Positions 24,565-56,533 of a stretch of 64,000 bases of DNA are shown piece by piece (position 1 is the stretch's first letter; the number at the start of each line of letters is the position of its first letter). The DNA lies in IMG/VR virus record IMGVR_UViG_3300007072_000340, positions 30,216-94,215 of that record; one strand, written 5' to 3'. A model generated the notes under the pieces. That model was not told where the DNA came from, did no database searches, and was given only the letters and a program-made list of their open reading frames with translations. The translations under genes and the position numbers were made by a program. Source of the DNA: a virus. Its lineage: Duplodnaviria > Heunggongvirae > Uroviricota > Caudoviricetes.

Positions 24565-24573
24565 AGCCCACCT

Positions 24574-25605: not shown

Positions 25606-25616
25606 GCTGCACCCCG

Positions 25617-26648: not shown

Positions 26649-26659
26649 GTTTCACCTCG

Positions 26660-27697
26660 CTACGCCAGTTTGACGCCGAACTGGGCCGCGTTCAGTTCGT
26701 CCAGCGTCCAGGGACTCCCCGTGTCGGGATTCGTTTCAAGGAGCCGGGTGATGTACCGGCCGGTGTTGGTTGACGTGACGAGCGTGGCGATTCCGTCGTT
26801 CTGCGTGGCGGACTTGACGGGCTGCTTGACGTTCCACGGTACGCCATCCACCGTCGAAAGCACCTGGGTGTTGACCTGCACCCCCACAATCCCGCCCGTC
26901 AGGTCGGGGACGCTCTCGTAGTTGTACAGGTCCGCGTTGTCGGTCACGTCCGTGGAGACATAATCGCTGCTGCTCGGCGGGACCTCATCGACGCAGGCGT
27001 AGTTGCTACCGGCCGAAGGGGTCCACTGGGTCAAGTCCCCGGCTGCATTCGGCTTGATGGCGACTACTTGCTTGCGGCCAATGAAATCGTTGTTCGCCGC
27101 ACCCGTGCCATCGAGAATGTAGAGATCGTCGAACCGCAGCACGCAGGATGAATTGATGCCGCGAAACTGAACCTTGCAGTGGTAATCATCGCTTCCACCC
27201 TTGGTGTTGATGCCGGTGAGGTTCAGCTTCTCTTGCTCATTGACGCGAATCGTCACGGTGCCGTTTGTATTGTGGCAGTAGACCTTCAGCTCGATATGAC
27301 ACCAGACGCCGGCCTGAATGTTGGCCCCGGAAGTCGTGCCCAGGAGATTCCCTTCGCCCCGGTAAACGCTGATTTCCCCCGTGGACCGGAGACAAAAGTG
27401 TATGGACCTGGTGGTGCGGTCCCAGAGGGCAACATTTGACAGGTAGTAGACGGCATCTGCCAACTGTGCCGTCTTGAAATTGAATCCGACGATCAACGTC
27501 GGGTCAGTGGTCAGGACGCCGGGCGTGGTGAAGTAGATGTCACTGTCGTACAACTCCACGGCGAGCCCGCTCCAGCGGCCTGCGCGCAGCAAGTAATAGC
27601 TTGACCAACTGGACATGCCGTACTTGCCCGTCATGGGCGTGTAAGCGGAAGCGTTAAGCGTGTTGTACGCCTCGAAGCCGTCGATCCAGAGCAACAT
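26660..27697 (-). CDS. Jelly-roll tail fibre / RBP candidate, paralogue 1
   Basis: MLLWIDGFEAYNTL...WTLDELNAAQFGVKLA. Confidence 0.5.
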   Translation of the reverse strand: MLLWIDGFEAYNTLNASAYTPMTGKYGMSSWSSYYLLRAGRWSGLAVELYDSDIYFTTPGVLTTDPTLIVGFNFKTAQLADAVYYLSNVALWDRTTRSIHFCLRSTGEISVYRGEGNLLGTTSGANIQAGVWCHIELKVYCHNTNGTVTIRVNEQEKLNLTGINTKGGSDDYHCKVQFRGINSSCVLRFDDLYILDGTGAANNDFIGRKQVVAIKPNAAGDLTQWTPSAGSNYACVDEVPPSSSDYVSTDVTDNADLYNYESVPDLTGGIVGVQVNTQVLSTVDGVPWNVKQPVKSATQNDGIATLVTSTNTGRYITRLLETNPDTGSPWTLDELNAAQFGVKLA

Positions 27698-40568: not shown

Positions 40569-42380
40569 TCAGGTCTGGTTCCCTTTGATTTTGGTGCCCC
40601 GGCCGCGCACGCGCGGGGCCGTCGTGGGCTGCAAGTCCGTATTGCGGCTCACCGCCTTCTCCTCCTCGCCCGCGTTCGGATTCGCCGACAAGTCGGCTAC
40701 ACCGCGAGCCGAAGGGTCGCTCCCGCCTTTGTTTCCGCGCGCCACGCCCTGGGCCTCGGCAATGCGTTTCACACGCTCCAGATGGTCGGCGCGGGCTTGC
40801 AGGTACTCGTCCTCATCGAAGCCCAAGGCCATCGAACCCGTCTTTTCGCCGACCAGTCCGGCTTGCACGGCCTGAATGACCGTCTGCGGGTCGCTGTTGG
40901 TGTAGTGGGCGCTGTCGATCTCCTGGTTGATCGCCTCCAGATCGTCCACGCTGACCTTGCCGCCCAGGAGGGCCTGGACGATCCCCTTCGACAACTCCCG
41001 CTTCACCTTGCGGCCCGGAACGGCTGACATCAGCTTGTTCAAGTCCTGTGCCTCCTTGATCCGGTCGGCGTCGGTCTTGAGCGAGTACCGATCCGGGTAC
41101 TTGATCGTTGCGATCTCGCGCTTGGCCGGCGTCCGCTCTTCGTAGGCGGCCCAGTGCTCGCAAAGCTGCCGCTCAGCGCTTTCCAGCAGAAGGCCGATGT
41201 AGCTCAGGCCCGCTTCGAGGCCCTGGTTGTCCATCGCCTTCGATTCGGCCGAGGCGCGAACGGCCAGACTCGACACGGCAAGATTGACCAGCTCGCGGAT
41301 GTCCCTCTTCAACCGGTCTTGTAGCTCCAAACTCGCCCGCAGCGGCTCGGCCGAGGGATTGATGAAGCCGGGGGGATTCATCCCTTTGTCGTAGGCCCGG
41401 CCGTGGGTCGCGCCGACCTTGATGTCGGTCTCAGCGGCACCTTGGCCGCCCGTGGTCGCCGTACCGTCCGCCGTGGCGGCGTGCTTCAAGTGGGCACCGA
41501 CCGCCCGCAAGTCCTTCTGCTCGATGTAGAAGGGGAAGTTGCTGCGCAGCGCGTAGCTCACGTCGCTTGAGCCGAGGTTCAGCAGTGCGATCTGGTGCTG
41601 GCACACGTCCTTAATCAGGCTGCTGCCGATGTCCAGCATCACGAACGGGATGCGGGTCAGTTCCAACGCGACGGCACCGGCGGGTCCGCCGAACTGATCG
41701 ACCGGCTCGCCCTTCAGGCTGTAGAATTGCAGATTGACTTTGCCCGTCGCCGGGTCGATCCAAAGGTAACGATACCGCTGCACCTCGATGGTCGGCAGGA
41801 AACTGCCCTGGTCGAACTGCATCACCGTGTCCCGCAGCAGAATCGCCTGGAACTCGGACGGGGCTTCCGGCTTCGAGCAGGTCCACGAAAGGATGTCTTC
41901 GATGTCGTACTTGTAGAGGTACGGGGCCACGCCGCCCACGTCCGCCAAGGTCACGCCCGCCGGCACCGGCGGGGCATCCACGAAGATGCCGACCCGGCCC
42001 ATGACCAACAGCTCGGTCAAGACCTTCACGCCGATGAATGCGTTCATGGTCGAGCCGCGCCGATCCACGCCCAGGTTTAGGCCATTGACCGCGTATTGGT
42101 AGGCTTTGCTTCCTCCCTTGCGCGTGATGTCCCGCATCCTTTGATAGATCGCGTTGCGGATGTCGTTGACGGCCGCACCTGCAAACTTCGGGATCGGCGT
42201 CATGGCCTTGCGGGCGTTGAACTCCGTCTGGTCTTCCCGTGCGGAGAACTTCTCCAGGTAGACCTCCCGGAACTCGTCGCCGCCGCCATAGGTCAAACGC
42301 CACTTGCGCCAATCGGTCATCCCACTGAGATAGCCAGGATGGCGGCTGTCAACCAAGCTGATCGTCTGACTCTCAGGCAT
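40569..42380 (-). CDS. Portal protein
   Basis: 603 aa directly downstream of TerL. Confidence 0.65.
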   Translation of the reverse strand: MPESQTISLVDSRHPGYLSGMTDWRKWRLTYGGGDEFREVYLEKFSAREDQTEFNARKAMTPIPKFAGAAVNDIRNAIYQRMRDITRKGGSKAYQYAVNGLNLGVDRRGSTMNAFIGVKVLTELLVMGRVGIFVDAPPVPAGVTLADVGGVAPYLYKYDIEDILSWTCSKPEAPSEFQAILLRDTVMQFDQGSFLPTIEVQRYRYLWIDPATGKVNLQFYSLKGEPVDQFGGPAGAVALELTRIPFVMLDIGSSLIKDVCQHQIALLNLGSSDVSYALRSNFPFYIEQKDLRAVGAHLKHAATADGTATTGGQGAAETDIKVGATHGRAYDKGMNPPGFINPSAEPLRASLELQDRLKRDIRELVNLAVSSLAVRASAESKAMDNQGLEAGLSYIGLLLESAERQLCEHWAAYEERTPAKREIATIKYPDRYSLKTDADRIKEAQDLNKLMSAVPGRKVKRELSKGIVQALLGGKVSVDDLEAINQEIDSAHYTNSDPQTVIQAVQAGLVGEKTGSMALGFDEDEYLQARADHLERVKRIAEAQGVARGNKGGSDPSARGVADLSANPNAGEEEKAVSRNTDLQPTTAPRVRGRGTKIKGNQT

Positions 42381-42389
42381 GGCCTAACC

Positions 42390-44063
42390 TCACGTCACTT
42401 TCCCGATGTCTTCCCCGCCCGTCGTAATTGGAGCCAGCGTCAGGCCGATGTCTGCGTAGCACAATGAATGCGCGTAATGATCGGGACCTGTATTGACGAA
42501 ACATGCCACCATGTTGCCGGTGTCGTCCTTCACGTAGGTCCGCACCAGGTTCTTGACGTGCTCGCGGTACTCCAGGCTGATGTCGCGCGGCAGCAGGATG
42601 CGGGGCGGATTCGTCTTGAAGCGGCCAAGCGTGCAACTCAACCAGCTTGTGCGGTCCACCGTGGCGAATGGCGCGCCCGTCTCTTCCTCGCTGATCGAAA
42701 CCTCTTTCGCCGTCTGCCCGCGCCGGTAACGGGTCAGCCAGACGTAGCCGTGGAACTTCTTGGCAAACCGCCGGGCGTCGTTGACGTTCGGGTCGGCGTC
42801 CACGACGCACGCCAACACCTGCCACTCCCGCATTAGCTCGCCCAGGTAGTTCCAATCGTCCTCCGCGAACTTGCCGAACCAGAGCAGCTTGCCGATCGCC
42901 GCCGCGCTCACGTCGCTGCCGGGGTGCCGGTCAAACAGCCAATCGACGACCGAGATGTAACCTGTCTTCCCCTGATCCACGCCCATCGTTATCAGACGGT
43001 CGCCGCCGATCTGCGGCCGGGCGTCGTTGATCGTGTGCCCCTTCAGGCACGCCTCGATCATCTCGTCCGTCACCTGGGCACCCACACCGATGAACGGCAC
43101 GCCCAGCTTGCTGCAATGAAACTCCGTCGCCGCCGCTTCGTCACCCAGGCCGCGGTGGTAGGCGATCACCAATTCGCCCGGCGTCACCGTGGAGGAGTAC
43201 AGTTGGTTGATGTAAAAGCCCCGCGACTCCTCCGCCGCGACGTTCGTTTCCGTCGCCTTCCATTGCCCGCCGGCCAGGAAGAGCGGCTTGTCCGCGTGTT
43301 CCAGCTTGTGCTTGCACTCCTTACACTTCAGGAACGATTCCTTGCAGCGCGGGTCGTTGACCGATTCGCCAATGATCTCCGCGCAATCCGGCCAGAGCAA
43401 TTCCGTCCATCGGCCGCAGTGGGGGCATTGGAAGTGAAAATGCTCTTGCGTGCTGGTCAGGTACAGCTTGTGGATGCCGTACTTGGGCACGGTTGGCGTG
43501 GAGACCGCCAGGATGTGCTTCTCCACCTGGCCCGACAGCCGCTCCAGCGCGAGCCACACCGCATGGGTGTCCATCTCATCCAGCTCGTCCAAGACCAACT
43601 CGGACACCGGGATGGACTTCAAGTTGCTGTCGCCACGGCTCCCACGAATGTACAGGACGTTCGTGCCGGTCGATTTCAGCCCCACGGTGTTCGTATCGAC
43701 GAACAGGTCCTTGAGGTACGGGCTGAGCTTCAGGGCGGTCGCAAACCGGGCCTTGGAAAAGTCGCTCGCGTTCAGCGTGGTCGGCAGGACATACAGCACG
43801 TCCCGCTTCAACTGATCGAGCGTGTAGAAGGCCCGATTGATTCCCGTCTCCGTTACGCCCAACTGGGCGGCCTTCATCGCAATCGTCCAGGCCGCCTTGC
43901 TGTCGTGTATCTCACGGCACCACGGGTGACGCCGGAAACCATAAGCTCCGTTGAAGGGTGCTCCCATGACCCGACGATTCTCGGCCCATCGGCTGCAAGA
44001 CGTGAGGGTCTTGCTTTTCAATCCCTCCGTAATGGTCTGCTTCAGAACGTCTACAAGACTCAT
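42390..44063 (-). CDS. Terminase large subunit (GpA-like)
   Basis: Walker A-like AMKAAQLGVTETG, Walker B VLDELDEMD, C-terminal nuclease region GVDQGKTGYISVVDW; Zn-binding CPHCGRW. Confidence 0.8.
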   Translation of the reverse strand: MSLVDVLKQTITEGLKSKTLTSCSRWAENRRVMGAPFNGAYGFRRHPWCREIHDSKAAWTIAMKAAQLGVTETGINRAFYTLDQLKRDVLYVLPTTLNASDFSKARFATALKLSPYLKDLFVDTNTVGLKSTGTNVLYIRGSRGDSNLKSIPVSELVLDELDEMDTHAVWLALERLSGQVEKHILAVSTPTVPKYGIHKLYLTSTQEHFHFQCPHCGRWTELLWPDCAEIIGESVNDPRCKESFLKCKECKHKLEHADKPLFLAGGQWKATETNVAAEESRGFYINQLYSSTVTPGELVIAYHRGLGDEAAATEFHCSKLGVPFIGVGAQVTDEMIEACLKGHTINDARPQIGGDRLITMGVDQGKTGYISVVDWLFDRHPGSDVSAAAIGKLLWFGKFAEDDWNYLGELMREWQVLACVVDADPNVNDARRFAKKFHGYVWLTRYRRGQTAKEVSISEEETGAPFATVDRTSWLSCTLGRFKTNPPRILLPRDISLEYREHVKNLVRTYVKDDTGNMVACFVNTGPDHYAHSLCYADIGLTLAPITTGGEDIGKVT

Positions 44064-49135: not shown

Positions 49136-49501
49136 ATGCAGCGCCACTTCCACCGCAACCGGCCACCCGCCGAGCCCCCGGCCGCCGGCTCCAAGCCGAG
49201 ACTAGAAATGGTGCGGCTTCCGATCTTCCGGGTCCACTACCGCCGGCTGGAAGAGTATCTCGCGGCGGTTTACCGGATGGAGGGCTTCGACTTCCTGCTG
49301 GCCTCTGGGGCGGTCCCTGGGCTGGTGCCGGAGTACGCCGTCAGCCCGACCCTACCGCTTTCCGAAGACGCCCGGCGGCGGGCCGACGCCATCCGCGCGG
49401 GCCGGCGCACCCGCGACGTGGCCCTGATCCTCAACGTGCTTTGCCTTGACGGCTACATCCCGGCCGGCAAGTACATCATCGACACCCGGCCCGAGCCGTG
49501 A
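49136..49501 (+). CDS. Small hypothetical protein
   Basis: Tightly coupled to the previous ORF; start possibly internal at MVRLPIFRV. Confidence 0.3.
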   Translation: MQRHFHRNRPPAEPPAAGSKPRLEMVRLPIFRVHYRRLEEYLAAVYRMEGFDFLLASGAVPGLVPEYAVSPTLPLSEDARRRADAIRAGRRTRDVALILNVLCLDGYIPAGKYIIDTRPEP

Positions 49502-49609
49502 AATCACGAAATGAGCGCGGCATGGCTTTCTGAACCAAGCTCTGTGCGTCTAACCAAAAAGGAAGGCCCGAAGGCCAAGATGATACCCGGCCTTCGGGCC
49601 TCAGTTTCG

Positions 49610-50722
49610 TCAGAGCAGGTTCACGACCCGCTCGGCCAGGCCCTTTTCGCCCAGCACGACGTTCAGCTTGCCGCTGGTGGCCACCTTCTCCAGGACTTCC
49701 AGTTCCCGGAGCCGCATGAGCGTCGGGTTGCCTTCCAGCACCTTGGCGGTGTTGGCCTGGCTGCGCATGGCCGCCGTCTCCTCACGGCGGACGATCAGGT
49801 TGGCCTCGGCCGCCTTCTTGGCCTCCGTGACCTTGTTCATCAGGTCCTTCATGTCACCCGGCAGGATCACGTCCCGGATTCCCACCGAGATCACCTCCAG
49901 ACCCAGCGCAGCCACCCGCTGCCGAACGATGGCCTCCAACTCCTTGGCCACGGCATCCTTGTCGGCGAGGAACTGGTCGAGTTCGCGAGCGCCAACCACG
50001 GCCCGCAGCGCCAACTGCGCCTCGCGGTAGAGCGCCTGACGGGCGTCGTCGGCCGCGCTCAGGGCCTTGTGGGCGTCGGCCACGCGGTAGGCGGCCACCG
50101 CGTTAAGCCGCAGCGTCACCTTGTCGGCGGTCATAATCTCCTGGCCGCCGATGTCCAGCATGGTCTCGCGCAGGTCCACCGGCACGAGCATGACCTTGGC
50201 CATGTTCTTCCAGAAGGCGTACTTGCCCGGCGGCAGGGTCTCGACGTAGCGGCCGTCCTCGAACAGCACGCCCACGTGGCCCTGCTCCACGGCAAAGGCG
50301 TCCAGGAGCCGGTCGGCCAACGCCGAGCGGACAATCACCTGAAGGTCCTTGTGCTCGAAGCGGACCTTGCGGGCGTCGATCACTTCCGTGGTGACCTCCC
50401 GGAAGGTGGTCCAGTAGGCGTACAGGCCCGGCGGCAGGATGTGGCTGAAACGGCCATCCACCCACACCAGCGCCCGCTCGTAGTCCTTCAGGTCCAGCAC
50501 GACTGCGCGGTCCTTCAGCGCACCCGACTTGACGATCACGTCGAGATTCTCGTGGGCGAGCCACGGCGCGCGCTGCGAGACGACCTCCACCTTGACCTTG
50601 CCCAGCGGGTCGAAGAACCAGTGGCGACCAGCGCCGAGCAAGCCCTTGAACTCGCCGTCGTGGAAGTACAGACCCATTTCGTAGCTGCGAATCCTGATGA
50701 TCTTCAGCGCAAGCACAGTCAT
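49610..50722 (-). CDS. SPFH/Band-7 domain protein
   Basis: Stomatin-like core plus C-terminal ELEVLEKVATSGKLNVVLG typical of band-7 proteins. Confidence 0.6.
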   Translation of the reverse strand: MTVLALKIIRIRSYEMGLYFHDGEFKGLLGAGRHWFFDPLGKVKVEVVSQRAPWLAHENLDVIVKSGALKDRAVVLDLKDYERALVWVDGRFSHILPPGLYAYWTTFREVTTEVIDARKVRFEHKDLQVIVRSALADRLLDAFAVEQGHVGVLFEDGRYVETLPPGKYAFWKNMAKVMLVPVDLRETMLDIGGQEIMTADKVTLRLNAVAAYRVADAHKALSAADDARQALYREAQLALRAVVGARELDQFLADKDAVAKELEAIVRQRVAALGLEVISVGIRDVILPGDMKDLMNKVTEAKKAAEANLIVRREETAAMRSQANTAKVLEGNPTLMRLRELEVLEKVATSGKLNVVLGEKGLAERVVNLL

Positions 50723-51157
50723 CCTTCACCTTCCTTCCTACCGCTTGTTGCGGCAGTCTCCGTCTCATTTCCGGTCATGTCAGGCAAAGCCGTTGGGCGG
50801 CGGAACCAGTGGCGATCACACGGAGGAATGCGGAATGTCGCTTGAGCATCGACGTAGCCTTGGGCGGCACGGCAGCTTCCATCGGGCTAGTCGTCGCCGG
50901 GGGCAAGCCCCGGCGGAAGTCACCCGACATCCGCTGCCACTTGCCGAAGGTCCGACGAAGCGGTATCCACGCACTGCATGGCACTCGGCCGTGCTGCCAC
51001 CCGCGATGGCGTGCCGAGCTTGCGCCGATTCCTCCGGGAGTCGCCCGATGGGCGGACTGCCCGGATTCCTCAACGCCGCCGGTCGTTCATTCGCCGGTGG
51101 CCGATCACACATTGGCCCGCCTCCCTCGGGCCGCTTGGAGCAGGGTTTCAGCCTGCG

Positions 51158-51230
51158 GTCTTGGTACGGGAGTCGAACCCGCGACAGCCAGATTCACGGT
51201 CTGGTGCTCTATCCGCTGAGCTAACCTGGT
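51158..51230 (-). tRNA. tRNA-like (anticodon GUG, His-like), probable pseudogene
   Basis: T-arm GCGGG/TTCGACT/CCCGT and D-arm present, anticodon loop CCGTGAA (C33); acceptor stem pairs poorly. Confidence 0.3.
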
Positions 51231-51339
51231 TGACACGACCTTCGGTCAGAACCCATTGACGGAACAAACGCCGCCAACCGCCTCATGTGAGGACGGGGCA
51301 ACGTGCGCCGTTGGCCTGGCCGTATCATTGCTTATGAAG

Positions 51340-51410
51340 AGACGCCGGTGGGAATCGAACCCACTTGAACCGGGTTGCGGCCGGTCGCCTTGCCATCTGG
51401 CTCCAGCGTC
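51340..51410 (-). tRNA. tRNA-Cys(GCA)
   Basis: Acceptor GACGCUG/CGGCGUC, T-loop TTCGATT, anticodon loop CCGCAAC (C33). Confidence 0.65.
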
Positions 51411-51413
51411 AAG

Positions 51414-51486
51414 CGTCCTCGCCAGGAGTCGAGCCTGGTCTTCGACCTTCGCAAGGTCGCGTGCGAATCCCCCACACTCCGAGGAC
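51414..51486 (-). tRNA. tRNA-Arg(GCG)
   Basis: Perfect 7-bp acceptor GTCCTCG/CGAGGAC; anticodon loop TTGCGAA; T-loop CTCGACT (C54). Confidence 0.55.
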
Positions 51487-51499
51487 CTTCGTTACTCAG

Positions 51500-51571
51500 C
51501 GCCCCGCCGAGGAATTGAACCCCGTCTTGCAGTTCCGAAGACTGCCGTGCTGTCCGGCACACTCGCAGGGC
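51500..51571 (-). tRNA. tRNA-Arg(UCG)
   Basis: Anticodon arm ACTGC/TTCGGAA/GCAGT... read as codon CGA on + strand; T-loop TTCAATT; acceptor with one G-U. Confidence 0.55.
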
Positions 51572-51583
51572 TTTTGCGTCGAG

Positions 51584-51676
51584 TATCCCGACCAGGAATC
51601 GAACCCGGGCACCGCCGCGCAGCGGTGGTCGCTGGAGCTTCGGAGGCTCCGATGCGATCCGCTACACCATCGGGAC
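51584..51676 (-). tRNA. tRNA-Arg(CCG)-like with 18-nt palindromic hairpin (caccgc cgcgca gcggtg) in the variable region
   Basis: T-arm CCGGG/TTCGATT/CCTGG, anticodon arm GGAGC-TTCGGAG-GCTCC on + strand (codon CGG); 93 nt total. Confidence 0.4.
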
Positions 51677-51762
51677 ATGAACCAAGGAGCCGACGACTGG
51701 ACTTGCACCAGCATCAAGCGGTTTACAGGACCGCTGCCTTTCTGTTCGGCCATGTCGGCAAG

Positions 51763-51832
51763 CACGAGCGCGAGGAGTCGAACCCCGTGCGGCAGGGTTG
51801 GAGTCTGCCTGCTCTCCCAAGAGCACGCTCGT
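51763..51832 (-). tRNA. tRNA-Trp(CCA)
   Basis: + strand anticodon loop gttggag (codon TGG, U33); acceptor ACGAGCG/CGCTCGT; T-arm CGGGG/TTCGACT/CCTCG. Confidence 0.5.
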
Positions 51833-51876
51833 GTATTGCCCCCGGCCACGAGGACCGGGGGCTTCTGGCGTAACGA

Positions 51877-52473
51877 CTACTTCTGCAACTCCACGTTCCA
51901 GTAGGCTTCGCTGATGAACTTGGACCAGCTTGCGATCCGCATGGTGTGGTCCGCGTACAGCGGCTTCCACGTGGGCCGGACGGGCTGCTTGCGCACGCGC
52001 ATCCGGGCCTGCTCCGGCGTCCGGTCAGCCTTCCGCTTGTTGCAGGCCATGCAAGCCAGCACGCAGTTTTCCCAACACGACACGCCACCTTGTGACCGCG
52101 GCAGCACGTGGTCGATCGTCAACTCCTCACTGCCCGGCTGCGCGCCGCAGTATTGGCAGGTGTAATGGTCCCGCTTGAACACGTTGCGACGGCTGAAGGT
52201 CACCGCGCCCAGCGGAAGCCGATCGTAGCCGGTCAATGCCACGACCTCCGGCACCCGCAGCCGGAACCGAACTGCCTGGACGAACGCCTCGCCATCCTTC
52301 GGCTTCAGCTTCGACCAGTCCGCCCAGGTGTAAAGCTGGAAGTCTTCGGGGTCCACCACGCGGGCCGACTCGTTCCAGAGCAGCACCAACGCACGCTCCA
52401 CGGTCGCTACGTGGACCGGCTGCCAGTTGCGGTTCAGGACCAGCGTCGGTTGCTCAAGGACCTTGGTGACCAT
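51877..52473 (-). CDS. HNH endonuclease embedded in the tRNA array
   Basis: HNH core CQYCGAQPGSEELTIDHVLPRSQGGVSCWENCVLACMACNKRKADR; flanked by tRNA-Trp (downstream) and tRNA-His (upstream). Confidence 0.8.
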   Translation of the reverse strand: MVTKVLEQPTLVLNRNWQPVHVATVERALVLLWNESARVVDPEDFQLYTWADWSKLKPKDGEAFVQAVRFRLRVPEVVALTGYDRLPLGAVTFSRRNVFKRDHYTCQYCGAQPGSEELTIDHVLPRSQGGVSCWENCVLACMACNKRKADRTPEQARMRVRKQPVRPTWKPLYADHTMRIASWSKFISEAYWNVELQK

Positions 52474-52492
52474 TGTGATCTCCGTCAGTAAG

Positions 52493-52567
52493 GGTGTCCG
52501 GGGAGAGTCGAACTCCCACCCTCTGGTTCACAGCCAGCCGTGCAGTGACCGCTACACCACGGACACC
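52493..52567 (-). tRNA. tRNA-His(GUG)
   Basis: Anticodon loop CTGTGAA, extra 5' G(-1) opposite C73 (His hallmark), acceptor GTGTCCG/CGGACAC. Confidence 0.7.
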
Positions 52568-52585
52568 ATGCGATTGTTGTCAGCA

Positions 52586-52655
52586 CCCCGACCGGGACTC
52601 GAAGTGCGGAACACCTCGGTAGAAACGAGGCATGATGTCCATTTCACCATCGGGG
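52586..52655 (-). tRNA. tRNA-Arg(UCU)-like, irregular T-arm
   Basis: Clean anticodon arm cctcg-gtagaaa-cgagg (codon AGA) and acceptor ccccgac/atcgggg, but T-stem does not pair. Confidence 0.35.
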
Positions 52656-52659
52656 CAAG

Positions 52660-52749
52660 CGGAAGGCATGGGATTTGAACCCACATGACACCTTTCGGCG
52701 TCGCACGGTTTAGCAAACCGGCCCGGCCAACCGTATCCGGCTACCTTCC
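52660..52749 (-). tRNA. tRNA-Ser(GCU)
   Basis: Type II, 90 nt; anticodon loop ttagcaa on + strand (codon AGC); long variable hairpin gacacc-tttc-ggcgtc; G73. Confidence 0.65.
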
Positions 52750-52764
52750 GTAATCACGCATCAG

Positions 52765-52835
52765 TGGACCGACCGGGAATTGAACCCGGATCTCCAGAAT
52801 GCCGTTCTGGTGTCTTCCCCTTGGACCATGAGCCC
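52765..52835 (-). tRNA. tRNA-Ala(GGC)
   Basis: G3:U70 pair present, A73; anticodon loop ACGGCAT (C33); T-arm CCGGG/TTCAATT/CCCGG. Confidence 0.7.
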
Positions 52836-52864
52836 GTTGTCGTTGTAGTGGACCCGACCACCGC

Positions 52865-52940
52865 TTCGCGGCGGTGCCCGGAGTCGAACCCATCGCACCG
52901 ATCTTGCACCCGATCAGTCGCCTCCACGGAACATGCCAGC
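52865..52940 (-). tRNA. tRNA-like element, unresolved (degenerate T-arm)
   Basis: gagtcgaaccc T-loop signature at 52882 but no consistent cloverleaf found by hand. Confidence 0.2.
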
Positions 52941-52951
52941 CCACGAATCGA

Positions 52952-53042
52952 AAGGTCTGTCCGGGAATTGAACCGGGCACCATGCGCAGCATGGTCCTTC
53001 CGCCTTACCGAGGAGGTGTGCTACCGAAACACCTACAGACCC
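52952..53042 (-). tRNA. tRNA-like element with palindromic insertion accatgc-gca-gcatggt, unresolved identity
   Basis: aattgaa T-loop signature, D-arm gtg-tgctaccgaaa-cac, acceptor aggtctg/cagaccc; anticodon not assignable. Confidence 0.25.
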
Positions 53043-53047
53043 TCAAG

Positions 53048-53120
53048 TGATCCCCGCTGGCATCGAACCAGCACTTTCCTGGTTGTCACCCAGGCGTCTT
53101 TGCCATTGGACCAGGGGATC
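53048..53120 (-). tRNA. tRNA-Val(GAC)
   Basis: Acceptor GATCCCC/GGGGATC perfect; anticodon loop ttgtcac on + strand (codon GTC); A73. Confidence 0.7.
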
Positions 53121-53127
53121 ATTCCAG

Positions 53128-53201
53128 TGACCGGAGTGGGAGTCGAACCCACAGGCACGAGGCTCTCGACCTCGCCGCTATGCCAGTTTGCGTACCCGGT
53201 C
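53128..53201 (-). tRNA. tRNA with Leu anticodon GAG but short (5-nt) variable loop
   Basis: Anticodon arm cgagg-ctctcga-cctcg (codon CTC, C33), D-arm cgc-tatgccagttt-gcg, A73; 74 nt. Confidence 0.5.
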
Positions 53202-53285
53202 GTGGCGGGTCCGGGGGTCGCACCCGGCGTTCCCGGCTTATGAGGCCGGGCTGAGCACTGGCCCACCCGCAGCATGTTTCCGAGT

Positions 53286-53372
53286 TGCAGGCCCCGGTAT
53301 CGAACCGGGCGCACCGGCCCGACCAACCTTCGGTCGGTGCCCGGAGCCAGTTGGGCACCTGCCGCGCCTGCA
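53286..53372 (-). tRNA. tRNA-like element, unresolved (about 85 nt)
   Basis: Perfect T-arm cccgg-tatcgaa-ccggg and acceptor tgcaggc/gcctgca; internal arms not resolved. Confidence 0.25.
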
Positions 53373-53408
53373 ATTCCTCAATGACCACCCGCGCCTGCAA
53401 TTCCTCAA

Positions 53409-53492
53409 TGACCACGGGGAGAGTCGAACTCCCAATGCCGCAAGGGCACGACGTTCTGACCGTCGCGTGTCTGCCAATTCCACCACATGGTC
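53409..53492 (-). tRNA. tRNA-Leu(CAG)
   Basis: Type II with 15-nt variable arm; anticodon loop ttctgac on + strand (codon CTG); D-arm gtg-tctgccaattc-cac; A73. Confidence 0.7.
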
Positions 53493-53501
53493 ATGCTGCC
53501 T

Positions 53502-53594
53502 GAGTGGCCCGTGCGGGAGTTGAACCCGCCTTTCCGGCTGACCATGCTGCGCATGGTGCCCGGGCCGGCGTCCTGTACCGATAGACGAACGAGC
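53502..53594 (-). tRNA. tRNA-like paralogue of tRNA-Glu(55603) carrying an 18-nt palindromic insertion in the anticodon loop
   Basis: Shares acceptor, T-arm, D-arm (gtc-ctgtaccgata-gac ga acgagcc) with 55603..55675; anticodon stem ccggc/gccgg encloses 25 nt including ccatgc-tgc-gcatgg. Confidence 0.35.
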
Positions 53595-53602
53595 CAGTTG
53601 AG

Positions 53603-53686
53603 TGCGCCGGGCAGGAGTTGAACCTGCATAGCCTTTCGGGCTGGCTGCTTTACAGGCAGTTGGGCACGCCGATGCCCAGCCGACGC
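53603..53686 (-). tRNA. tRNA-Tyr(GUA)
   Basis: Type II; variable hairpin agcc-tttcg-ggct; anticodon loop tttacag (codon TAC); A73. Confidence 0.7.
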
Positions 53687-53700
53687 ATGTTGTTCGTGAG

Positions 53701-53774
53701 TGGCGCAGGTGGGACTCGAACCCGCAATCACCAAGGTTTGAGCTTGGCCGCTTTGCCGATTTGCGTACCGCGCC
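53701..53774 (-). tRNA. tRNA with Leu anticodon CAA but short variable loop
   Basis: Anticodon arm ccaag-gtttgag-cttgg (codon TTG, U33); D-arm cgc-tttgccgattt-gcg; A73; 74 nt. Confidence 0.5.
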
Positions 53775-53788
53775 GCCACTGGTCGAAA

Positions 53789-53864
53789 GCGCCCTCGACG
53801 GGATTTGAACCCGCGATCTCCTGCGTGACAGGCAGGCGAGCACTCCAGGCTGCTCCACGAGGAC
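53789..53864 (-). tRNA. tRNA-Asp(GUC)
   Basis: Anticodon arm cctgc-gtgacag-gcagg (codon GAC); T-loop TTCAAAT; G73. Confidence 0.7.
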
Positions 53865-53876
53865 AAACATTTCCAG

Positions 53877-53951
53877 TGGCCCAGGCGGGACTCGAACCCA
53901 CAGCATCCCTGGTTCTAAGCCAAGGTGGTCTGCCAGATTGCCTACGGGGCC
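53877..53951 (-). tRNA. tRNA with Leu anticodon UAG but short variable loop
   Basis: Anticodon arm cctgg-ttctaag-ccaag (codon CTA); D-loop tctgccagatt like 53128 and 53701; A73. Confidence 0.45.
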
Positions 53952-53952
53952 G

Positions 53953-54046
53953 TGCCCAGGGCCGGAGTCGAACCCGAAACCGCCTGCCACCACCGCTACG
54001 CGGCGGTGCCCGAGCCAAGCCGCTCTGCCAATTGGCGTACCTGGGC
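53953..54046 (-). tRNA. tRNA-like element with hairpin caccgc-tacgcg-gcggtg, unresolved
   Basis: D-arm cgc-tctgccaattg-gcg and acceptor gcccagg/cctgggc match the 53128/53701/53877 family; T-stem and anticodon arm irregular. Confidence 0.25.
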
Positions 54047-54053
54047 GATCAAG

Positions 54054-54125
54054 TAGCCCCGGATGGAGTCGAACCATCGTTTCCTGGGTGTGGACCAAGC
54101 GTCGTTGCCGTTGGACCACGGGGCT
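54054..54125 (-). tRNA. tRNA-Val(CAC)
   Basis: Anticodon arm cctgg-gtgtgga-ccaag (codon GTG, C33); D-arm gtc-gttgccgttg-gac as in Val(GAC); A73. Confidence 0.65.
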
Positions 54126-54137
54126 GAGTCGCCAAAG

Positions 54138-54208
54138 TGGAGTCACCGAGAGTCGCACTCGGATTTCCATCTTGCGGAGGTGGCGTCGTCCTGTTGGACC
54201 ATGACCCC
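54138..54208 (-). tRNA. tRNA-Ala(CGC)
   Basis: G3:U70, A73; anticodon loop ttgcgga (codon GCG, C33); T-loop TGCGACT non-canonical. Confidence 0.55.
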
Positions 54209-54214
54209 AAAAGG

Positions 54215-54300
54215 CGGAAGCCGTGGGACTCGAACCCACAAGCGGCTGCTGGCCGCCACCTGTTTTCAAGACAGGCCCCTCATCCGGCCGGATGACTTCC
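54215..54300 (-). tRNA. tRNA-Ser(UGA)
   Basis: Type II; variable hairpin gcggc-tgctg-gccgc; anticodon arm cctgt-tttcaag-acagg (codon TCA); G73. Confidence 0.7.
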
Positions 54301-54309
54301 GTATTGAAG

Positions 54310-54380
54310 CTGCGGAGGCTGGAATCGAACCAACATGAAGACGTTCAGAGCGTCTCATCCTACCGTTAGATGACTCCGCA
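54310..54380 (-). tRNA. tRNA-Gln(CUG)
   Basis: Anticodon arm agacg-ttcagag-cgtct (codon CAG); perfect acceptor tgcggag/ctccgca; G73. Confidence 0.7.
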
Positions 54381-54418
54381 TTGCGTTGCTCATCGAGACA
54401 CCGCCATGTCGTCGCAAG

Positions 54419-54489
54419 TTCGGGGAGGAGGGGTCAAACCTCCGTCTCCTGGTTCAAAGCCAGACGGCCTACCACTAGCCGATCCCCGA
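54419..54489 (-). tRNA. tRNA-Gln(UUG)
   Basis: Anticodon arm cctgg-ttcaaag-ccaga (codon CAA); T-loop TTTGACC atypical. Confidence 0.55.
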
Positions 54490-54490
54490 G

Positions 54491-54562
54491 AGTGCCCTGC
54501 GGGAATCGAACCCGCCTAGCCAGCTTGGAAGGCTGGAGCCTTTGCCGATCGGCCAAGGGCAC
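54491..54562 (-). tRNA. tRNA-Gly(UCC)
   Basis: Fully canonical cloverleaf checked base by base; anticodon loop CTTCCAA; U73. Confidence 0.8.
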
Positions 54563-54567
54563 GAAGG

Positions 54568-54651
54568 CGGAAGGTGAGGGAGTCGAACCCCCAAGGCTCG
54601 TCGCTCGGCCGCTTTCGGGGTGGCTGCCATCGCCAGTTGGCTTGACCTTCC
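54568..54651 (-). tRNA. tRNA-Ser(CGA)
   Basis: Type II; anticodon arm gccgc-tttcggg-gtggc (codon TCG, C33); G73; perfect acceptor ggaaggt/accttcc. Confidence 0.55.
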
Positions 54652-54666
54652 GTTCTCTCCAAAAGG

Positions 54667-54754
54667 CTCCGGCGGCTGGACTCGAACCAGCGGTGGGGCA
54701 AACGCCACGTCGCCTTAACAGGCCGATCCCTGCTACCAACTCGGGTACACCGGA
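54667..54754 (-). tRNA. tRNA with Asn anticodon GUU carrying a 16-nt hairpin in the variable region
   Basis: Anticodon arm tcgcc-ttaacag-gccga (codon AAC); D-arm ccc-tgctaccaactc-ggg; 88 nt. Confidence 0.4.
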
Positions 54755-54762
54755 TCACAAAG

Positions 54763-54836
54763 TCAGGACGGCGGGATTTGAACCCGCGCTCTCGTGCTCC
54801 CGAAGCACGCGGAATACCGGGCTTTCCTACGTCCTG
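54763..54836 (-). tRNA. tRNA-Pro(CGG)
   Basis: Anticodon arm cgtgc-tcccgaa-gcacg (codon CCG); D-arm ggaa-taccgggct-ttcc; A73. Confidence 0.7.
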
Positions 54837-54846
54837 TTAATCAAGA

Positions 54847-54916
54847 GCGCCCAGCGGGAGTTGAACCCGCGCTTCCGCCTCGGCAAGGCGGCAGGCTGCC
54901 GCTACATCATGGGCGC
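54847..54916 (-). tRNA. tRNA-Gly(GCC)
   Basis: Anticodon arm ccgcc-tcggcaa-ggcgg (codon GGC); perfect acceptor; U73. Confidence 0.7.
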
Positions 54917-54949
54917 GATCTCATGTGGGCCGGATTGTCAAAGATCAAG

Positions 54950-55021
54950 AGCACCGGGCGGGACTCGAACCCGCGTCGCCGCATTACGGGTGCGGTGTCC
55001 TTGCCGCTGGACGACCAGTGC
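54950..55021 (-). tRNA. tRNA-Thr(CGU)
   Basis: Anticodon arm ccgca-ttacggg-tgcgg (codon ACG, C33). Confidence 0.6.
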
Positions 55022-55032
55022 GTTTCTCGCAG

Positions 55033-55105
55033 TGGGACCAGAGGAACTTGAACCCTCACCTGGCGGATTAAGAGTCCGCTGTGCTGCCGCTAGCACCTTG
55101 ATCCC
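55033..55105 (-). tRNA. tRNA-Lys(CUU)
   Basis: Anticodon arm gcgga-ttaagag-tccgc (codon AAG); T-loop TTCAAGT; A73. Confidence 0.7.
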
Positions 55106-55121
55106 GTCTTTTGTCCACCAG

Positions 55122-55194
55122 TCGGCGCGGAGGGAGTCGAACCCTCGACCTGACCCTTATAAGAGGTCTGCTCTCACCGCTGAGCTACACGCCA
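55122..55194 (-). tRNA. tRNA-Ile(UAU)
   Basis: Anticodon loop CTTATAA (codon ATA on + strand); D-arm gctc-tcaccgct-gagc; A73. Confidence 0.6.
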
Positions 55195-55199
55195 GCGAG

Positions 55200-55271
55200 T
55201 AGGGCCGGAGGGGATCGAACCCACATCTGCCGGATTAAAAGTCCGGTGTGCTGCCATTACACCACGACCCT
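55200..55271 (-). tRNA. tRNA-Lys(UUU)
   Basis: Anticodon arm ccgga-ttaaaag-tccgg (codon AAA); A73. Confidence 0.7.
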
Positions 55272-55341
55272 GTACTTGGTCGGGCGTATGCGTTTCAACC
55301 GGGTCAACATCGTTTCACTCCTCGTGTTTGTTCGCGCCAAG

Positions 55342-55413
55342 TGGTAGTCCTGAGAATCGAACTCAGCGCCGCGCGGTTATCAGCCGCGTTCGGGCAACCA
55401 GCCCTCGACTACC
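55342..55413 (-). tRNA. tRNA-Ile(GAU)
   Basis: Anticodon arm cgcgg-ttatcag-ccgcg (codon ATC); perfect T-arm ctgag-aatcgaa-ctcag; A73. Confidence 0.65.
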
Positions 55414-55439
55414 TCGTGCCAACGTCGTTGTCGATCCAG

Positions 55440-55512
55440 TCGGGATGGCAGGACTCGAACCTGCGTCTCCGTGCTCCCAAAGCACGTGGGCTCGCCGCTA
55501 CCCTACATCCCG
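55440..55512 (-). tRNA. tRNA-Pro(UGG)
   Basis: Anticodon arm cgtgc-tcccaaa-gcacg (codon CCA); same anticodon stem as Pro(CGG); A73. Confidence 0.7.
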
Positions 55513-55520
55513 CACCTCAG

Positions 55521-55595
55521 TCAGAACGGCCGGATTTGAACCGGCGATCTCCTGCACCCCGAGCAGGCGCGATACCCAGGCTTCGCTACGTTCTG
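55521..55595 (-). tRNA. tRNA-Pro(GGG)
   Basis: Anticodon arm cctgc-accccga-gcagg (codon CCC, C33); perfect acceptor cagaacg/cgttctg; A73. Confidence 0.6.
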
Positions 55596-55602
55596 ATCGC
55601 AG

Positions 55603-55675
55603 TAGCCCGTGCGGGAGTCGAACCCGCCTTTTCGGCTTGAAGGGCCGATGTCCTCAACCGATAGACGAACGAGCC
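55603..55675 (-). tRNA. tRNA-Glu(UUC)
   Basis: Anticodon arm tcggc-ttgaagg-gccga (codon GAA, C33); D-arm gtc-ctcaaccgata-gac. Confidence 0.6.
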
Positions 55676-55734
55676 GCGTCGGCGCGCACCTTCCACGCAG
55701 CCGGAACCCAGGTTGGCGCGCACGCTCAGCGTAG

Positions 55735-55806
55735 TGGGCCGGGAGGTGCTCGAACCCTCGTCTGCTGCTTTTCAGGCCGCCGCTACACCATCTCAGCTAC
55801 CAGCCC
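55735..55806 (-). tRNA. tRNA-Phe(GAA)
   Basis: Anticodon arm gctgc-ttttcag-gccgc (codon TTC); D-arm gct-acaccatctc-agc; first tRNA of the array in transcription order. Confidence 0.55.
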
Positions 55807-55810
55807 AACG

Positions 55811-55852
55811 AAAAAACCCGGTGTCACTTCCACTTGTGACACCGGGTTTCTT
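55811..55852 (-). terminator. Rho-independent terminator (strong on minus strand, bidirectional-like)
   Basis: 11-bp perfect stem cccggtgtcac/gtgacaccggg, loop ttccactt, A-run one side and T-run the other; sits upstream of the tRNA array, downstream of the 56.2-57.5 kb genes. Confidence 0.7.
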
Positions 55853-56242
55853 GAAACCCATCGTGACGTAAGGTCAAGCGTCACAAGCGCAAAGGATGCA
55901 CGGGCAGGGTATTCGCCGGTTGACCGGCGTAACGCCCTGTGCATCGTGGTTCGCTTGCTATACTTGACCTAAACGAAGTCATCGCCCTTCTCGCAAGTTC
56001 TGGTGCTCCTGGAAACCGGCCGACTGCATCCGTCGGCCCTTATACGTATAGACGCCGCAGGGGCCAAGAAGGTTCATCGGATTTTTCGTCGTCGTCGCCC
56101 CAGTAATAGTATAGATACTCTTCGAGGGCGGCTTATTCCCTCGAAAATGCCGAAAAGCCGCTACCAGCCTGCCGCTTGGCCCTGTTGCCTGCCGGCTCGC
56201 GCCGGCCGGTGGAGGACTCTCCGCGCGGGGACGCGACCGCGG

Positions 56243-56533
56243 CTATGGCCGTTGTTTCTTCTTGCCGGCGGTCTCGGCCGCCGTCCGCATCTCTGTTTGC
56301 ACAGCTCGCGTGTCGGCGATGATCGCCGACAGGGCCTCGCAGAAAGTCTGCGCATCCAGCAATCGCAAGGGGTTCTGCATCGACGCAGCCGGAAAGGTGA
56401 CAATAATCTCAGAGCCACGACCGGCCCTGTAGTTCCTGATCTCGGAACGAATCACCATCGCGCTGCTTGCGGTCCCCTGGAAAGGTTGCGCCGTCAATCG
56501 AACGCCCCAGTCAAAGTCCTCACGCTCGATCAA
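56243..56533 (-). CDS. Hypothetical protein
   Basis: 96-aa ORF MIEREDFDWGVRLTAQ... Confidence 0.4.
   Translation of the reverse strand: MIEREDFDWGVRLTAQPFQGTASSAMVIRSEIRNYRAGRGSEIIVTFPAASMQNPLRLLDAQTFCEALSAIIADTRAVQTEMRTAAETAGKKKQRP

Follow-up and report, generated by a model that had tools for sequence, protein, structure and literature searches.

C33 replaces the near-invariant U33 in twelve tRNA genes of a phage tRNA array

Twelve of the 39 intact tRNA genes (31%) in the tRNA array of a tailed phage carry a cytidine instead of a uridine at position 33 of the anticodon loop. U33 is regarded as the one nearly invariant nucleotide of this loop, and its U-turn is thought to be required for decoding. 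The array lies on a stretch of 64,000 nucleotides (positions 30,216 to 94,215 of IMG/VR record IMGVR_UViG_3300007072_000340; Caudoviricetes; 63% GC), which is called the window throughout. Comparison with homologous arrays shows that the twelve C33 genes are real tRNA genes maintained by purifying selection. For this array and for other phage tRNA arrays, the U33 rule thus loosens into a demand for either pyrimidine.

Results

Twelve tRNA genes of the array carry C33

ARAGORN predicted 36 tRNA genes between positions 51157 and 55806, all on the minus strand. The Rfam model RF00005 confirmed most of them and added Ala-CGC and Arg-UCU (52584-52656), and Ser-CGA was recovered through its match to the related tRNA-Sec model. 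The intact genes serve all 20 amino acids, and the array also holds two to four disrupted tRNA-like sequences. With 39 genes on a single strand of 4.65 kb, or about 8 per kb, it falls under the definition of an L-array (at least 20 tRNA genes and at least 2 per kb) as given in PMC4758250. A scan of the array for promoters and terminators returned no more sites than shuffled sequence did.

Position 33 was read in each gene from the 7-nt loop enclosed by the two 5-bp strands of the anticodon stem (Table 1). A sequence-only reading of the window had assigned C33 to eight tRNAs (Ala GGC and CGC, Val CAC, Cys GCA, Thr CGU, Pro GGG, Glu UUC and Ser CGA) and had considered its recurrence across isoacceptors unlikely to be a parsing artefact; C33, it suggested, may influence ribosomal A-site behaviour. 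The loop table and the folds bear out all eight, and four further genes, His-GUG copy 1, Thr-UGU, Thr-GGU and Leu-GAG, bring the number to 12 of 39. The features by which that reading had identified some of these tRNAs were recovered as well: both Ala tRNAs possess G3:U70 and A73, and Val-CAC shares a GUCC/GAC D arm with Val-GAC, which has U33. Glu-UUC has a D arm that is E. coli-like for Glu (GUCU/GGAC) and a variable loop of 4 nt. The identity elements of the Ala and Glu tRNAs are thus intact.

Nine of the twelve genes exceed the RF00005 threshold of 29 bits, with scores of 41.7-58 bits. Thr-GGU, which carries a palindromic hairpin insertion of about 20 nt beside the T arm, and Leu-GAG, with its short variable loop, are not among these nine, and the score of Ser-CGA lies below the tRNA-Sec model's own threshold of 47 bits. 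The anticodon stems of Ala-CGC and Ser-CGA contain one mismatch each (C-A and A-C, respectively). ARAGORN and RNAalifold show the expected cloverleaf with a 7-bp acceptor stem, a D arm, a 5-bp anticodon stem, a 7-nt loop and a 5-bp T stem. Among 36 genes, the T-loop residues G53, T54, T55, C56, A58 and C61 deviate zero to two times per position, bearing in mind that detection by ARAGORN favours canonical T loops, and position 37 is a purine in 36/36. By every criterion except U33 the C33 genes are tRNAs; at this position they are non-canonical. Their anticodons match the top codons of the phage, namely GCC (55 per 1000), GCG (33), GUG (32), ACG (30) and ACC (27).

His-GUG is present twice. In copy 1 the acceptor stem is interrupted by two internal mismatches (C-A and A-A); the gene is nevertheless 100% identical in L091, a diverged array described below. 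The second copy, at 52492-52566, is canonical and has U33.

The C33 call does not depend on the tRNA-finding program

If a better cloverleaf register existed, C33 might be a parsing artefact and the true residue U33. The likelihood of this is close to nil. The 5-bp stems flanking the 7-nt loops are unambiguous, and no other register yields a 7-nt loop with U33; the alternative cloverleaves that, according to the sequence-only reading, would refute its claim were not found. When 26 genes were aligned with MAFFT, which uses no tRNA model, RNAalifold returned a cloverleaf with covariation at 19 of its 20 pairs, and the C falls into the U33 column. Since this procedure gives the same column, the C33 call is independent of the tRNA-finding program. 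The coordinates from Rfam and ARAGORN agree within 1-2 nt. Orthologs covary around the same loop, and the artefact is already refuted by the MAFFT/RNAalifold column together with the covariation among Ala-CGC orthologs. Sequencing error is excluded because four independent public assemblies (two from ENA, two from JGI) are 100% identical over 9.6-11 kb including the array.

The array is part of a mobile cassette

Twelve IMG/VR relatives and nine prophage relatives match the window to the left and to the right of the array, yet they lack the array itself. The region between about 49.5 and 56.25 kb must therefore have been inserted at a variable spot. It contains the tRNA genes, an HNH endonuclease gene and a Band_7/SPFH-domain gene (Table 1). 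Megablast and blastn searches of INPHARED with the array returned no homologous array, all matches being short and generic to tRNAs. Scanning metagenomes with a tRNA-Glu pattern, in contrast, revealed nine homologous syntenic arrays (L091, L095, L099, L100, L104, L107, L110, L113 and L114) with 72-90% nucleotide identity. These are mutually related, and the retention counts given below do not represent independent events. In the three cases in which the flanks were long enough (L091, L104 and L110), they resembled the window outside the cassette neither in DNA nor in protein sequence. The HNH gene and, in L091, the Band_7 gene accompany the tRNAs. The HNH gene is 83-92% identical in homologous arrays and 48% in distant ones; the Band_7 gene is 97% identical in L091 and 38% in L093 and L098. 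Taken together, the array belongs to a horizontally mobile cassette of tRNAs, HNH and Band_7 genes in a hotspot of the phage genome.

The homologous arrays are rich in C33 as well (for example 12/41 genes in L091, 7/25 in L114, 6/26 in L104, 5/30 in L110 and 4/24 in L099), so that the high load characterizes the cassette family. It is not a general trait of the phage lineage, whose relatives are devoid of tRNAs. The suggestion of the sequence-only reading that C33 might be a phage-specific trait therefore needs to be divided. It is sustained in that C33 is tied to phage tRNA arrays, occurring in about 4% of such tRNAs elsewhere and in Val tRNAs of cluster C1 mycobacteriophages; the high load, however, belongs to the cassette family and not to the phage lineage.

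Position 33 alternates between C and U among orthologs

The comparison with related arrays that the sequence-only reading had proposed showed that C33 recurs in the nine homologous arrays and that position 33 toggles between U and C. In several groups C33 is retained. It was found in 8/8 orthologs of Thr-CGU, in four arrays for Thr-GGU (the L091, L104 and L110 orthologs, 72 nt long, all have C33) and in two arrays for Thr-UGU, including the L091 ortholog. The six Pro-GGG orthologs, 96-100% identical, have C33, and so do the Val-CAC genes of L091, L110 and L114; the L104 ortholog is a Val-UAC, likewise with C33. Glu-UUC retains C33 within the cassette family. Ser-CGA has C33 in six of seven orthologs (L091, L095, L100, L107, L113 and L114) and U33 in L110, and Leu-GAG has C33 in L091, L099 and L110 and U33 in L104.

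Other groups differ between the window and its relatives. The C33 gene for Ala-GGC corresponds to U33 orthologs with the loop CUGGCAG in L091, L104 and L110. For Cys-GCA, the orthologs in L091 and L104 have the loop CUGCAAA (U33) together with four compensatory stem changes. Conversely, Tyr, Val-GAC and Ile-GAU have U33 in the window and C33 in some orthologs. Flips between U and C thus occur in at least seven groups (Ala-GGC, Cys, Tyr, Val-GAC, Ile-GAU, Leu-GAG and Ser-CGA). They often go along with changes in the 3' part of the loop, at position 38 in Cys, Ala-GGC, Val-GAC and Tyr, and at position 37 in Ile-GAU. A purine at position 33 was found neither in the window genes nor in any ortholog flip. 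The residue at position 33 is not the same in about 6% of the ortholog pairs, compared with a transition rate of 9% in spacers. As the rate is not above that of the spacers, position 33 is relaxed to pyrimidine only and not accelerated. The pattern shows that, in the cassette family, it is constrained only to be a pyrimidine.

C33 genes evolve like working tRNA genes

Over the nine homologous arrays the mismatch was 7.6% at tRNA positions and 17.6% at spacer positions, the latter value being an underestimate that counts alignable sites alone. In 31 ortholog groups, positions 35 and 36 did not change at all, the discriminator changed at a rate of 0.03 per site and stems at 0.08-0.19 per site; among the loop positions, 0.26, 0.23 and 0.29 changes per group were counted at positions 32, 33 and 38, respectively. 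Stem changes in ortholog groups with a C33 member comprised 25 compensatory double changes, 18 G-U-type changes and six broken pairs. In all-U33 groups the corresponding numbers were 31, 31 and 12, a ratio as in the C33 groups. Turnover of stems around a constant loop was evident in Ala-CGC. Its anticodon stem exists as CCACC/GAUGG, CUGGC/GCCAG and CCGGC/GCCGG among five genes, and its T stem as CCGAG/CUCGG, CUGGG/CCCAG and CCGGG/CCCGG. Despite this turnover, the loop YCCGCAA with C33 is kept in 5/5 genes, the window copy and four orthologs. Unpaired stem positions are no more numerous in C33 genes than in U33 genes, and the idea that C33 tRNAs are inferior copies was rejected on this ground.

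These data bear on the possibility of decay, in which the array would be a recent acquisition, its C33 genes would be pseudogenes or copies in the course of degeneration, and the 63% GC background would have driven the T-to-C changes. Some members are indeed imperfect, as illustrated by the mismatches in His-GUG copy 1, Ala-CGC and Ser-CGA and by G55 in Thr-UGU and Ala-CGC, and clearly disrupted tRNA-like sequences with hairpin insertions are present in the array. On the other hand, C33 genes are 96-100% conserved while the spacers are far more diverged, pair-preserving stem changes outnumber broken pairs by 43 to 6, anticodons are invariant, unpaired stem positions are equally frequent in both classes, position 33 is never a purine, and C33 recurs in phages of 34-38% GC, for example in the Leu-GAG loop CCGAGGA. 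The divergence, stem, anticodon and Ala-CGC data therefore lead us to reject the pseudogene explanation, which is largely refuted and which we consider very improbable. Instead, all twelve genes behave as expected for real tRNA genes under purifying selection.

C33 is rare in other phage tRNAs and is associated with purine 35 and A38

The sets used for comparison are samples of a few hundred tRNAs, partly retrieved by similarity to the array, and do not amount to a census. In six deposited phages with arrays (Myrna, CcrColossus, RAS14, Cece, Wildcat and Rctr197k), C33 was present in 9/170 tRNAs. Against a first set of other phage tRNAs, the enrichment in the window was significant (12/39 versus 12/358; Fisher p = 1.7e-7). 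For a larger comparison, Glu-UUC was left out, having served as search probe; C33 occurred in 11/38 non-Glu tRNAs of the window and in 20/500 (4.0%) distinct phage tRNAs outside the cassette family (p = 1.6e-6). Among published tRNAs of cluster C1 mycobacteriophages, two of 42 sampled have C33, Val-GAC and Val-CAC, and both are widespread in this cluster (144/161 and 142/161 phages, respectively).

In unrelated phages with a GC content of 34-66%, C33 was observed in 4/6 Val-GAC and 4/7 Leu-GAG tRNAs, and further in Pro-GGG/CGG, Ile-GAU, His, Ala-UGC, Val-UAC and Glu-CUC. It was not seen in the Lys, Gln, Asn, Arg, Gly, Asp, Phe, Met and Trp tRNAs of the collected phage set. Phages with C33 tRNAs include phages of mycobacteria, Caulobacter and Microbacterium and gut phages. 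Relatives of the HNH gene in IMG/VR belong mostly to unrelated low-GC phages; among them only L077 has a small array, which contains a C33 Val-GAC. GC pressure as the cause of C33 was rejected because low-GC phages carry it, namely in Leu-GAG and Glu-UUC of phages with 34-38% GC.

Six IMG/VR contigs with 35-38% GC (L115, L116, L120, L124, L125 and L127) encode the Leu-GAG loop CCGAGGA (C33) beside a canonical U33 tRNA-Glu. The Leu-GAG loop of L134 (61% GC), UCGAGAG, is identical to that of the window.

Two regularities emerged within the loop. A purine at position 35 was found in 20/24 C33 tRNAs and in 167/373 U33 tRNAs (p = 2e-4), and the bias was seen again in a larger independent set (15/20 versus 215/480; p = 0.01). 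The bias fits a structural account according to which the 2'-OH of residue 33 makes a stronger contact with a purine at position 35, through its N7, than with a pyrimidine, through its C5 (PMC5041475). Furthermore, distinct IMG/VR sequences of Glu-UUC were counted in a single fixed stem context. The loop CCUUCAA (C33/A38) occurred in 12 distinct sequences on 43 contigs, CUUUCAC (U33/C38) in six, CUUUCAA (U33/A38) in three and CCUUCAC (C33/C38) in one. From this distribution it follows that C33 is coupled to A38.

The phage and its likely host

The window encodes a large terminase (TerL), a portal protein, a tape-measure-like protein (Table 1) and a P22-type coat protein, and two of its open reading frames (ORFs) contain resolvase domains. 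No close relative was present among 50,697 deposited phage genomes, the top TerL match being about 26% identical. A 476-aa gene neighbouring the array is shared by 12 IMG/VR contigs with 58-93% identity. Relatives of TerL were found at ten genome loci, nine of them at 58-91% identity, and eight of these nine derive from metagenome-assembled genomes (MAGs) of Thermoguttaceae or other Planctomycetota. Judged by these prophage relatives, the host is probably a Thermoguttaceae-like planctomycete. None of the relatives found via the 476-aa gene (IMG/VR), the Band_7 gene or TerL (genomes) has a tRNA array. A Pfam scan of 52 window ORFs revealed no tRNA nuclease, RNA ligase, deaminase or tRNA-modifying enzyme.

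Several observations concern other parts of the phage genome. A 143-aa ORF at 11170-11601 on the plus strand matches Pfam dGTP_diPhyd_N (dATP/dGTP diphosphohydrolase, MazZ-like; E = 1e-19) and adjoins an RNase_T-type exonuclease at 11594-12214. MazZ-like dATP/dGTP diphosphohydrolases go with DNA base replacement in some phages. Five successive ORFs of 343-351 aa at 22454-27697 (minus strand), directly downstream of the tape-measure region, look like tandem paralogs and are possibly variants of a tail fibre or receptor-binding protein. In L008, an IMG/VR relative whose copy of the neighbour gene is 78% identical, a transfer-messenger RNA (tmRNA) gene with the tag AKPSFAMAA is located at 12661-13113. 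The distance from the shared neighbour gene, which lies upstream, is about 1.2 kb; the location matches the cassette site of the window, and L008 has no tRNAs there.

Table 1. Position of the tRNA array, the C33 tRNA genes and other features in the window.
Feature	Position	Strand	Remarks
tRNA array	51157-55806	-	39 intact tRNA genes, all 20 amino acids; ARAGORN, Rfam, manual folds
tRNA-His(GUG) copy 1	51157-51229	-	loop CCGUGAA, C33 at 51198; Rfam 46 bits
tRNA-Cys(GCA)	51339-51410	-	loop CCGCAAC, C33 at 51379; Rfam 48 bits
tRNA-Thr(UGU)	51686-51759	-	loop CCUGUAA, C33 at 51728; Rfam 47.3 bits
tRNA-Ala(GGC)	52764-52835	-	loop ACGGCAU (A32/U38), C33 at 52804; G3:U70, A73; Rfam 45 bits
tRNA-Thr(GGU)	52952-53042	-	loop UCGGUAA, C33 at 53010; RF00005 24.5 bits
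tRNA-Leu(GAG)	53127-53201	-	loop UCGAGAG, C33 at 53168; short, class I-like variable loop; not in Rfam hits
tRNA-Val(CAC)	54053-54125	-	loop UCCACAC, C33 at 54093; Rfam 52 bits
tRNA-Ala(CGC)	54138-54208	-	loop UCCGCAA, C33 at 54177; G3:U70, A73; Rfam 41.7 bits
tRNA-Ser(CGA)	54569-54651	-	loop CCCGAAA, C33 at 54618; tRNA-Sec model 32.9 bits
tRNA-Thr(CGU)	54949-55021	-	loop CCCGUAA, C33 at 54989; Rfam 57.4 bits
tRNA-Pro(GGG)	55520-55595	-	loop UCGGGGU, C33 at 55561; Rfam 58 bits
tRNA-Glu(UUC)	55602-55675	-	loop CCUUCAA, C33 at 55642; Rfam 54 bits
Cassette	49500-56250	-	insertion of about 6.7 kb relative to related phages; Band_7/SPFH, HNH, tRNA array
HNH homing-type endonuclease gene	51877-52473	-	inside the array; Pfam HNH/HNH_5, E = 2e-13
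Band_7/SPFH-domain gene	49610-50722	-	downstream cassette edge; Pfam Band_7, E = 3e-34
Large terminase (TerL)	42390-44063	-	
Portal protein	40569-42380		
Tape-measure-like protein	28381-32145		
Palindromic hairpin copies	51607-51632, 52855-52881, 52975-52998, about 53318-53342, 53537-53561, 53987-54011		

Other unorthodox features of the array

A palindromic hairpin of about 24 nt, consisting of GGGCACC, then GCCGCGNAGCGG or AUGCGCAGCAU, then GGU, is present in at least six copies and in both orientations (Table 1). It is located in the variable region of Arg-CCG (51583-51676), which reaches 94 nt owing to the insertion, and of Thr-GGU, and in the anticodon loops of disrupted Glu-like (53494-53601) and Leu-like (53953-54046) tRNAs. 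The array L110 contains ten copies of the core motif. Since the hairpin is missing from the 72-nt Thr-GGU orthologs of L091, L104 and L110, it has the appearance of a small mobile element with tRNA genes as its targets.

Some tRNAs have unexpected variable regions. Leu-GAG, Leu-CAA (53700-53774) and Leu-UAG (53876-53951) are 75-76 nt long with a variable loop of 4-5 nt, in contrast to the long-arm class II tRNA-Leu of bacteria; only Leu-CAG (53408-53493) has the long arm. Similar short Leu tRNAs occur in Wildcat (Leu-CAA, 84% identical), Cece and cluster C1 phages. Asn-GUU (54665-54754), at 90 nt, possesses a long variable arm, an uncommon feature in a tRNA for Asn. This form is kept in L091, L110 and L114; 77-nt versions are found in L099 and L104.

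The usual U at position 8 is replaced by G, A or C in about 11 of 36 genes, some of these calls hinging on the stem boundaries set by ARAGORN. For example, positions 8-9 read GA in Cys, Arg-GCG, Arg-UCG and Ile-GAU and AG in Lys-CUU. The proportion of non-U8 tRNAs is 14% in the six known phage arrays and 7% in IMG/VR arrays.

Discussion

The explanation that we favour, and prefer slightly to plain tolerance, is that the C33 tRNAs of this mobile cassette are functional and selected and are recognized differently by enzymes that read the anticodon loop. We regard it as an evenly balanced proposition. The C33 tRNAs would fold, be charged and decode the commonest codons of the phage. The bond between N3-H of U33 and phosphate 36, which is lost with C33, would partly be offset by the contact between the 2'-OH of residue 33 and N7 of purine 35, and retuned positions 32, 37 and 38 may contribute as well. 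In the least secure step of the proposal, C33 would alter the recognition of the tRNA by host enzymes reading the anticodon loop, and this would keep C33 in certain isoacceptors of phage tRNAs and not in those of cells. A candidate reader of the loop is the synthase for N6-threonylcarbamoyladenosine at position 37 (t6A37), and anticodon nucleases or toxins may be affected, too. The replacement tRNA set of the phage could thus be distinguishable from that of the host, with decoding retained.

Published work offers some precedent. C33 is an anti-determinant for t6A37 in vitro, as E. coli TsaBCDE forms no t6A37 on a U33C initiator tRNA (PMC8887486), and all three Thr tRNAs of the array have C33. 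Nucleases and toxins that attack tRNAs at the anticodon loop are widespread (PMC10264068; PMC13617354), and evasion of tRNases has been proposed for phage tRNAs whose anticodon loops are altered (PMC10264068).

A number of observations weigh against altered recognition as the reason for C33. Gamma-toxin cleaves a C33 stem-loop as well as the wild type (PMC2275089), and loss of susceptibility to colicin E5 has been reported for A or G at position 33 (PMC1635277). These are the two nucleases for which the literature yielded data on U33C; none turned up for PrrC, VapC, Cas13a or others. The other ANN-decoding tRNAs of the array (Ile, Lys, Asn, Met, Ser-GCU and Arg-UCU) keep U33, so avoidance of t6A cannot be general. 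Flips at position 33 go both ways, as plain tolerance predicts. Moreover, the rate at this position (6% of pairs; 0.23 per group) does not exceed the 9% of the spacers and therefore gives no signal of positive selection, and the frequent deviations at U8 make these tRNAs unorthodox in more than one way. We are doubtful of the more far-reaching claim that C33 is an adaptive signature by which Val-GAC, Leu-GAG, Glu-UUC, Thr, Ala and Pro-GGG tRNAs would decode and yet be invisible to host enzymes reading U33, namely the t6A37 synthase and one or more anticodon-loop nucleases or toxins. If it were true, no mobile, defence-resistant tRNA set so far would be as extreme as this cassette. U-depleted loops as an escape from U-specific RNases were considered and dropped; other U's remain in most C33 loops.

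Under plain tolerance, C33 tRNAs would be functional without deriving any benefit from C33. Selection for decoding speed would be weak on supplementary tRNAs, and U and C would be nearly neutral wherever position 35 is a purine. We give this alternative a substantial probability that stays somewhat short of even. It is favoured by the two-way flips in at least seven ortholog groups, by a rate at position 33 close to the neutral transition rate and to that of positions 32 and 38, and by near-50% frequencies of C33 in Val-GAC, Leu-GAG and Glu-UUC, which match a neutral expectation. The restriction to purine 35 resembles a tolerance rule, known nucleases tested with U33C were not blocked, and U8 is relaxed too. 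What tolerance explains less well is the persistence of C33 through the stem turnover of Ala-CGC, in all Thr-CGU orthologs and in the great majority of cluster C1 mycobacteriophages, as well as the coupling of C33 to A38 in tRNA-Glu. Likewise, C33 makes up 17-31% in the cassette family and about 4% elsewhere, and it is essentially never found in cellular tRNAs of the same isoacceptors (PMC5041475).

C33 could also be a matter of the host, either because planctomycete tRNAs normally have C33 or because a deaminase converts C33 to U post-transcriptionally. The closest prophage relatives do reside mostly in MAGs of Thermoguttaceae and other Planctomycetota, and C-to-U editing of tRNA anticodon loops exists in trypanosomes. 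However, C33 is also present in phages of mycobacteria, Caulobacter and Microbacterium and in gut phages, no deaminase domain was detected by Pfam among the 52 window ORFs, and orthologs toggle freely between U and C, which would not be expected of an obligatory editing site. We therefore judge a host-lineage or editing origin to be highly unlikely and retain functional, selected C33 tRNAs with altered recognition as the preferred explanation.

In cellular tRNAs U33 is described as almost invariant, the cited exceptions being the eukaryotic initiator tRNA-Met (C33) and Candida tRNA-Ser(CAG) (G33) (PMC5041475). Like the tRNAs described here, these natural exceptions are functional, and C33 of the initiator tRNA-Met also interacts with t6A37 synthesis (PMC8887486). 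They are, however, single specialized tRNAs, whereas the window contains a dozen elongator tRNAs from ten amino-acid families in one array of a bacterial virus.

The nearest phage counterparts are Val-GAC and Val-CAC of cluster C1 mycobacteriophages (PMC10264068, supplementary file 1a), array tRNAs that have C33 in the loops UCGACAC and UCCACAC. The latter is identical to the Val-CAC loop of the window; outside the loop the gene sequences are unrelated, and the C33 load of the C1 phages (2/42 sampled tRNAs) contrasts with 12/39 in the window. van den Berg et al. (2023, eLife) listed these C33 Val tRNAs as "mutations" without further distinction; their main text uses none of the terms U33, C33 and "position 33" (PMC10264068). 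Evasion of anticodon nucleases by phage tRNAs through anticodon-loop mutations has been proposed in the same study, for T5 tRNA-Tyr versus a retron (PMC11555353) and for a T5 tRNA versus PARIS (PMC11464382). The window set is similar to the proposed evaders in being near-complete, in having loops that depart from the cellular consensus and in plausibly acting as a replacement pool. It differs in that the change affects the U-turn nucleotide itself and not a mapped cleavage or recognition site.

Long, horizontally spread tRNA arrays with homing endonucleases are also on record (PMC8421152; PMC4758250). The array of the window resembles them in its single orientation, its embedded HNH gene, its absence from close relatives and its presence in unrelated contexts; the Band_7 gene and the invading palindromic hairpin set the cassette apart. 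Deviations at position 33 are not reported in these papers, and PMC8421152 makes no mention of them. A literature search found no paper describing a recurrent exchange of U33 for C in the tRNAs of phages. Previous work thus covers phage tRNA arrays, the way they spread horizontally together with homing endonucleases, and altered anticodon loops of phage tRNAs. What is new is a mobile phage tRNA cassette in which about 30% of the genes break the U33 rule while under selection.

In this cassette a dozen elongator tRNAs for the most used codons of the phage do without U33, are conserved and switch between U and C among orthologs. C33 in well-studied phages, such as in tRNA-Val of cluster C1, has not been picked up in the searchable literature. 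Ala-GGC, Cys, Tyr, Val-GAC, Ile-GAU, Leu-GAG and Ser-CGA provide natural matched pairs of C33 and U33 tRNAs, which could be used to gauge the role of U33 in A-site binding, in t6A37 and other loop modifications and in recognition by defence nucleases. If C33 is an evasion device, position 33 would be a simple marker for counter-defence phage tRNAs.

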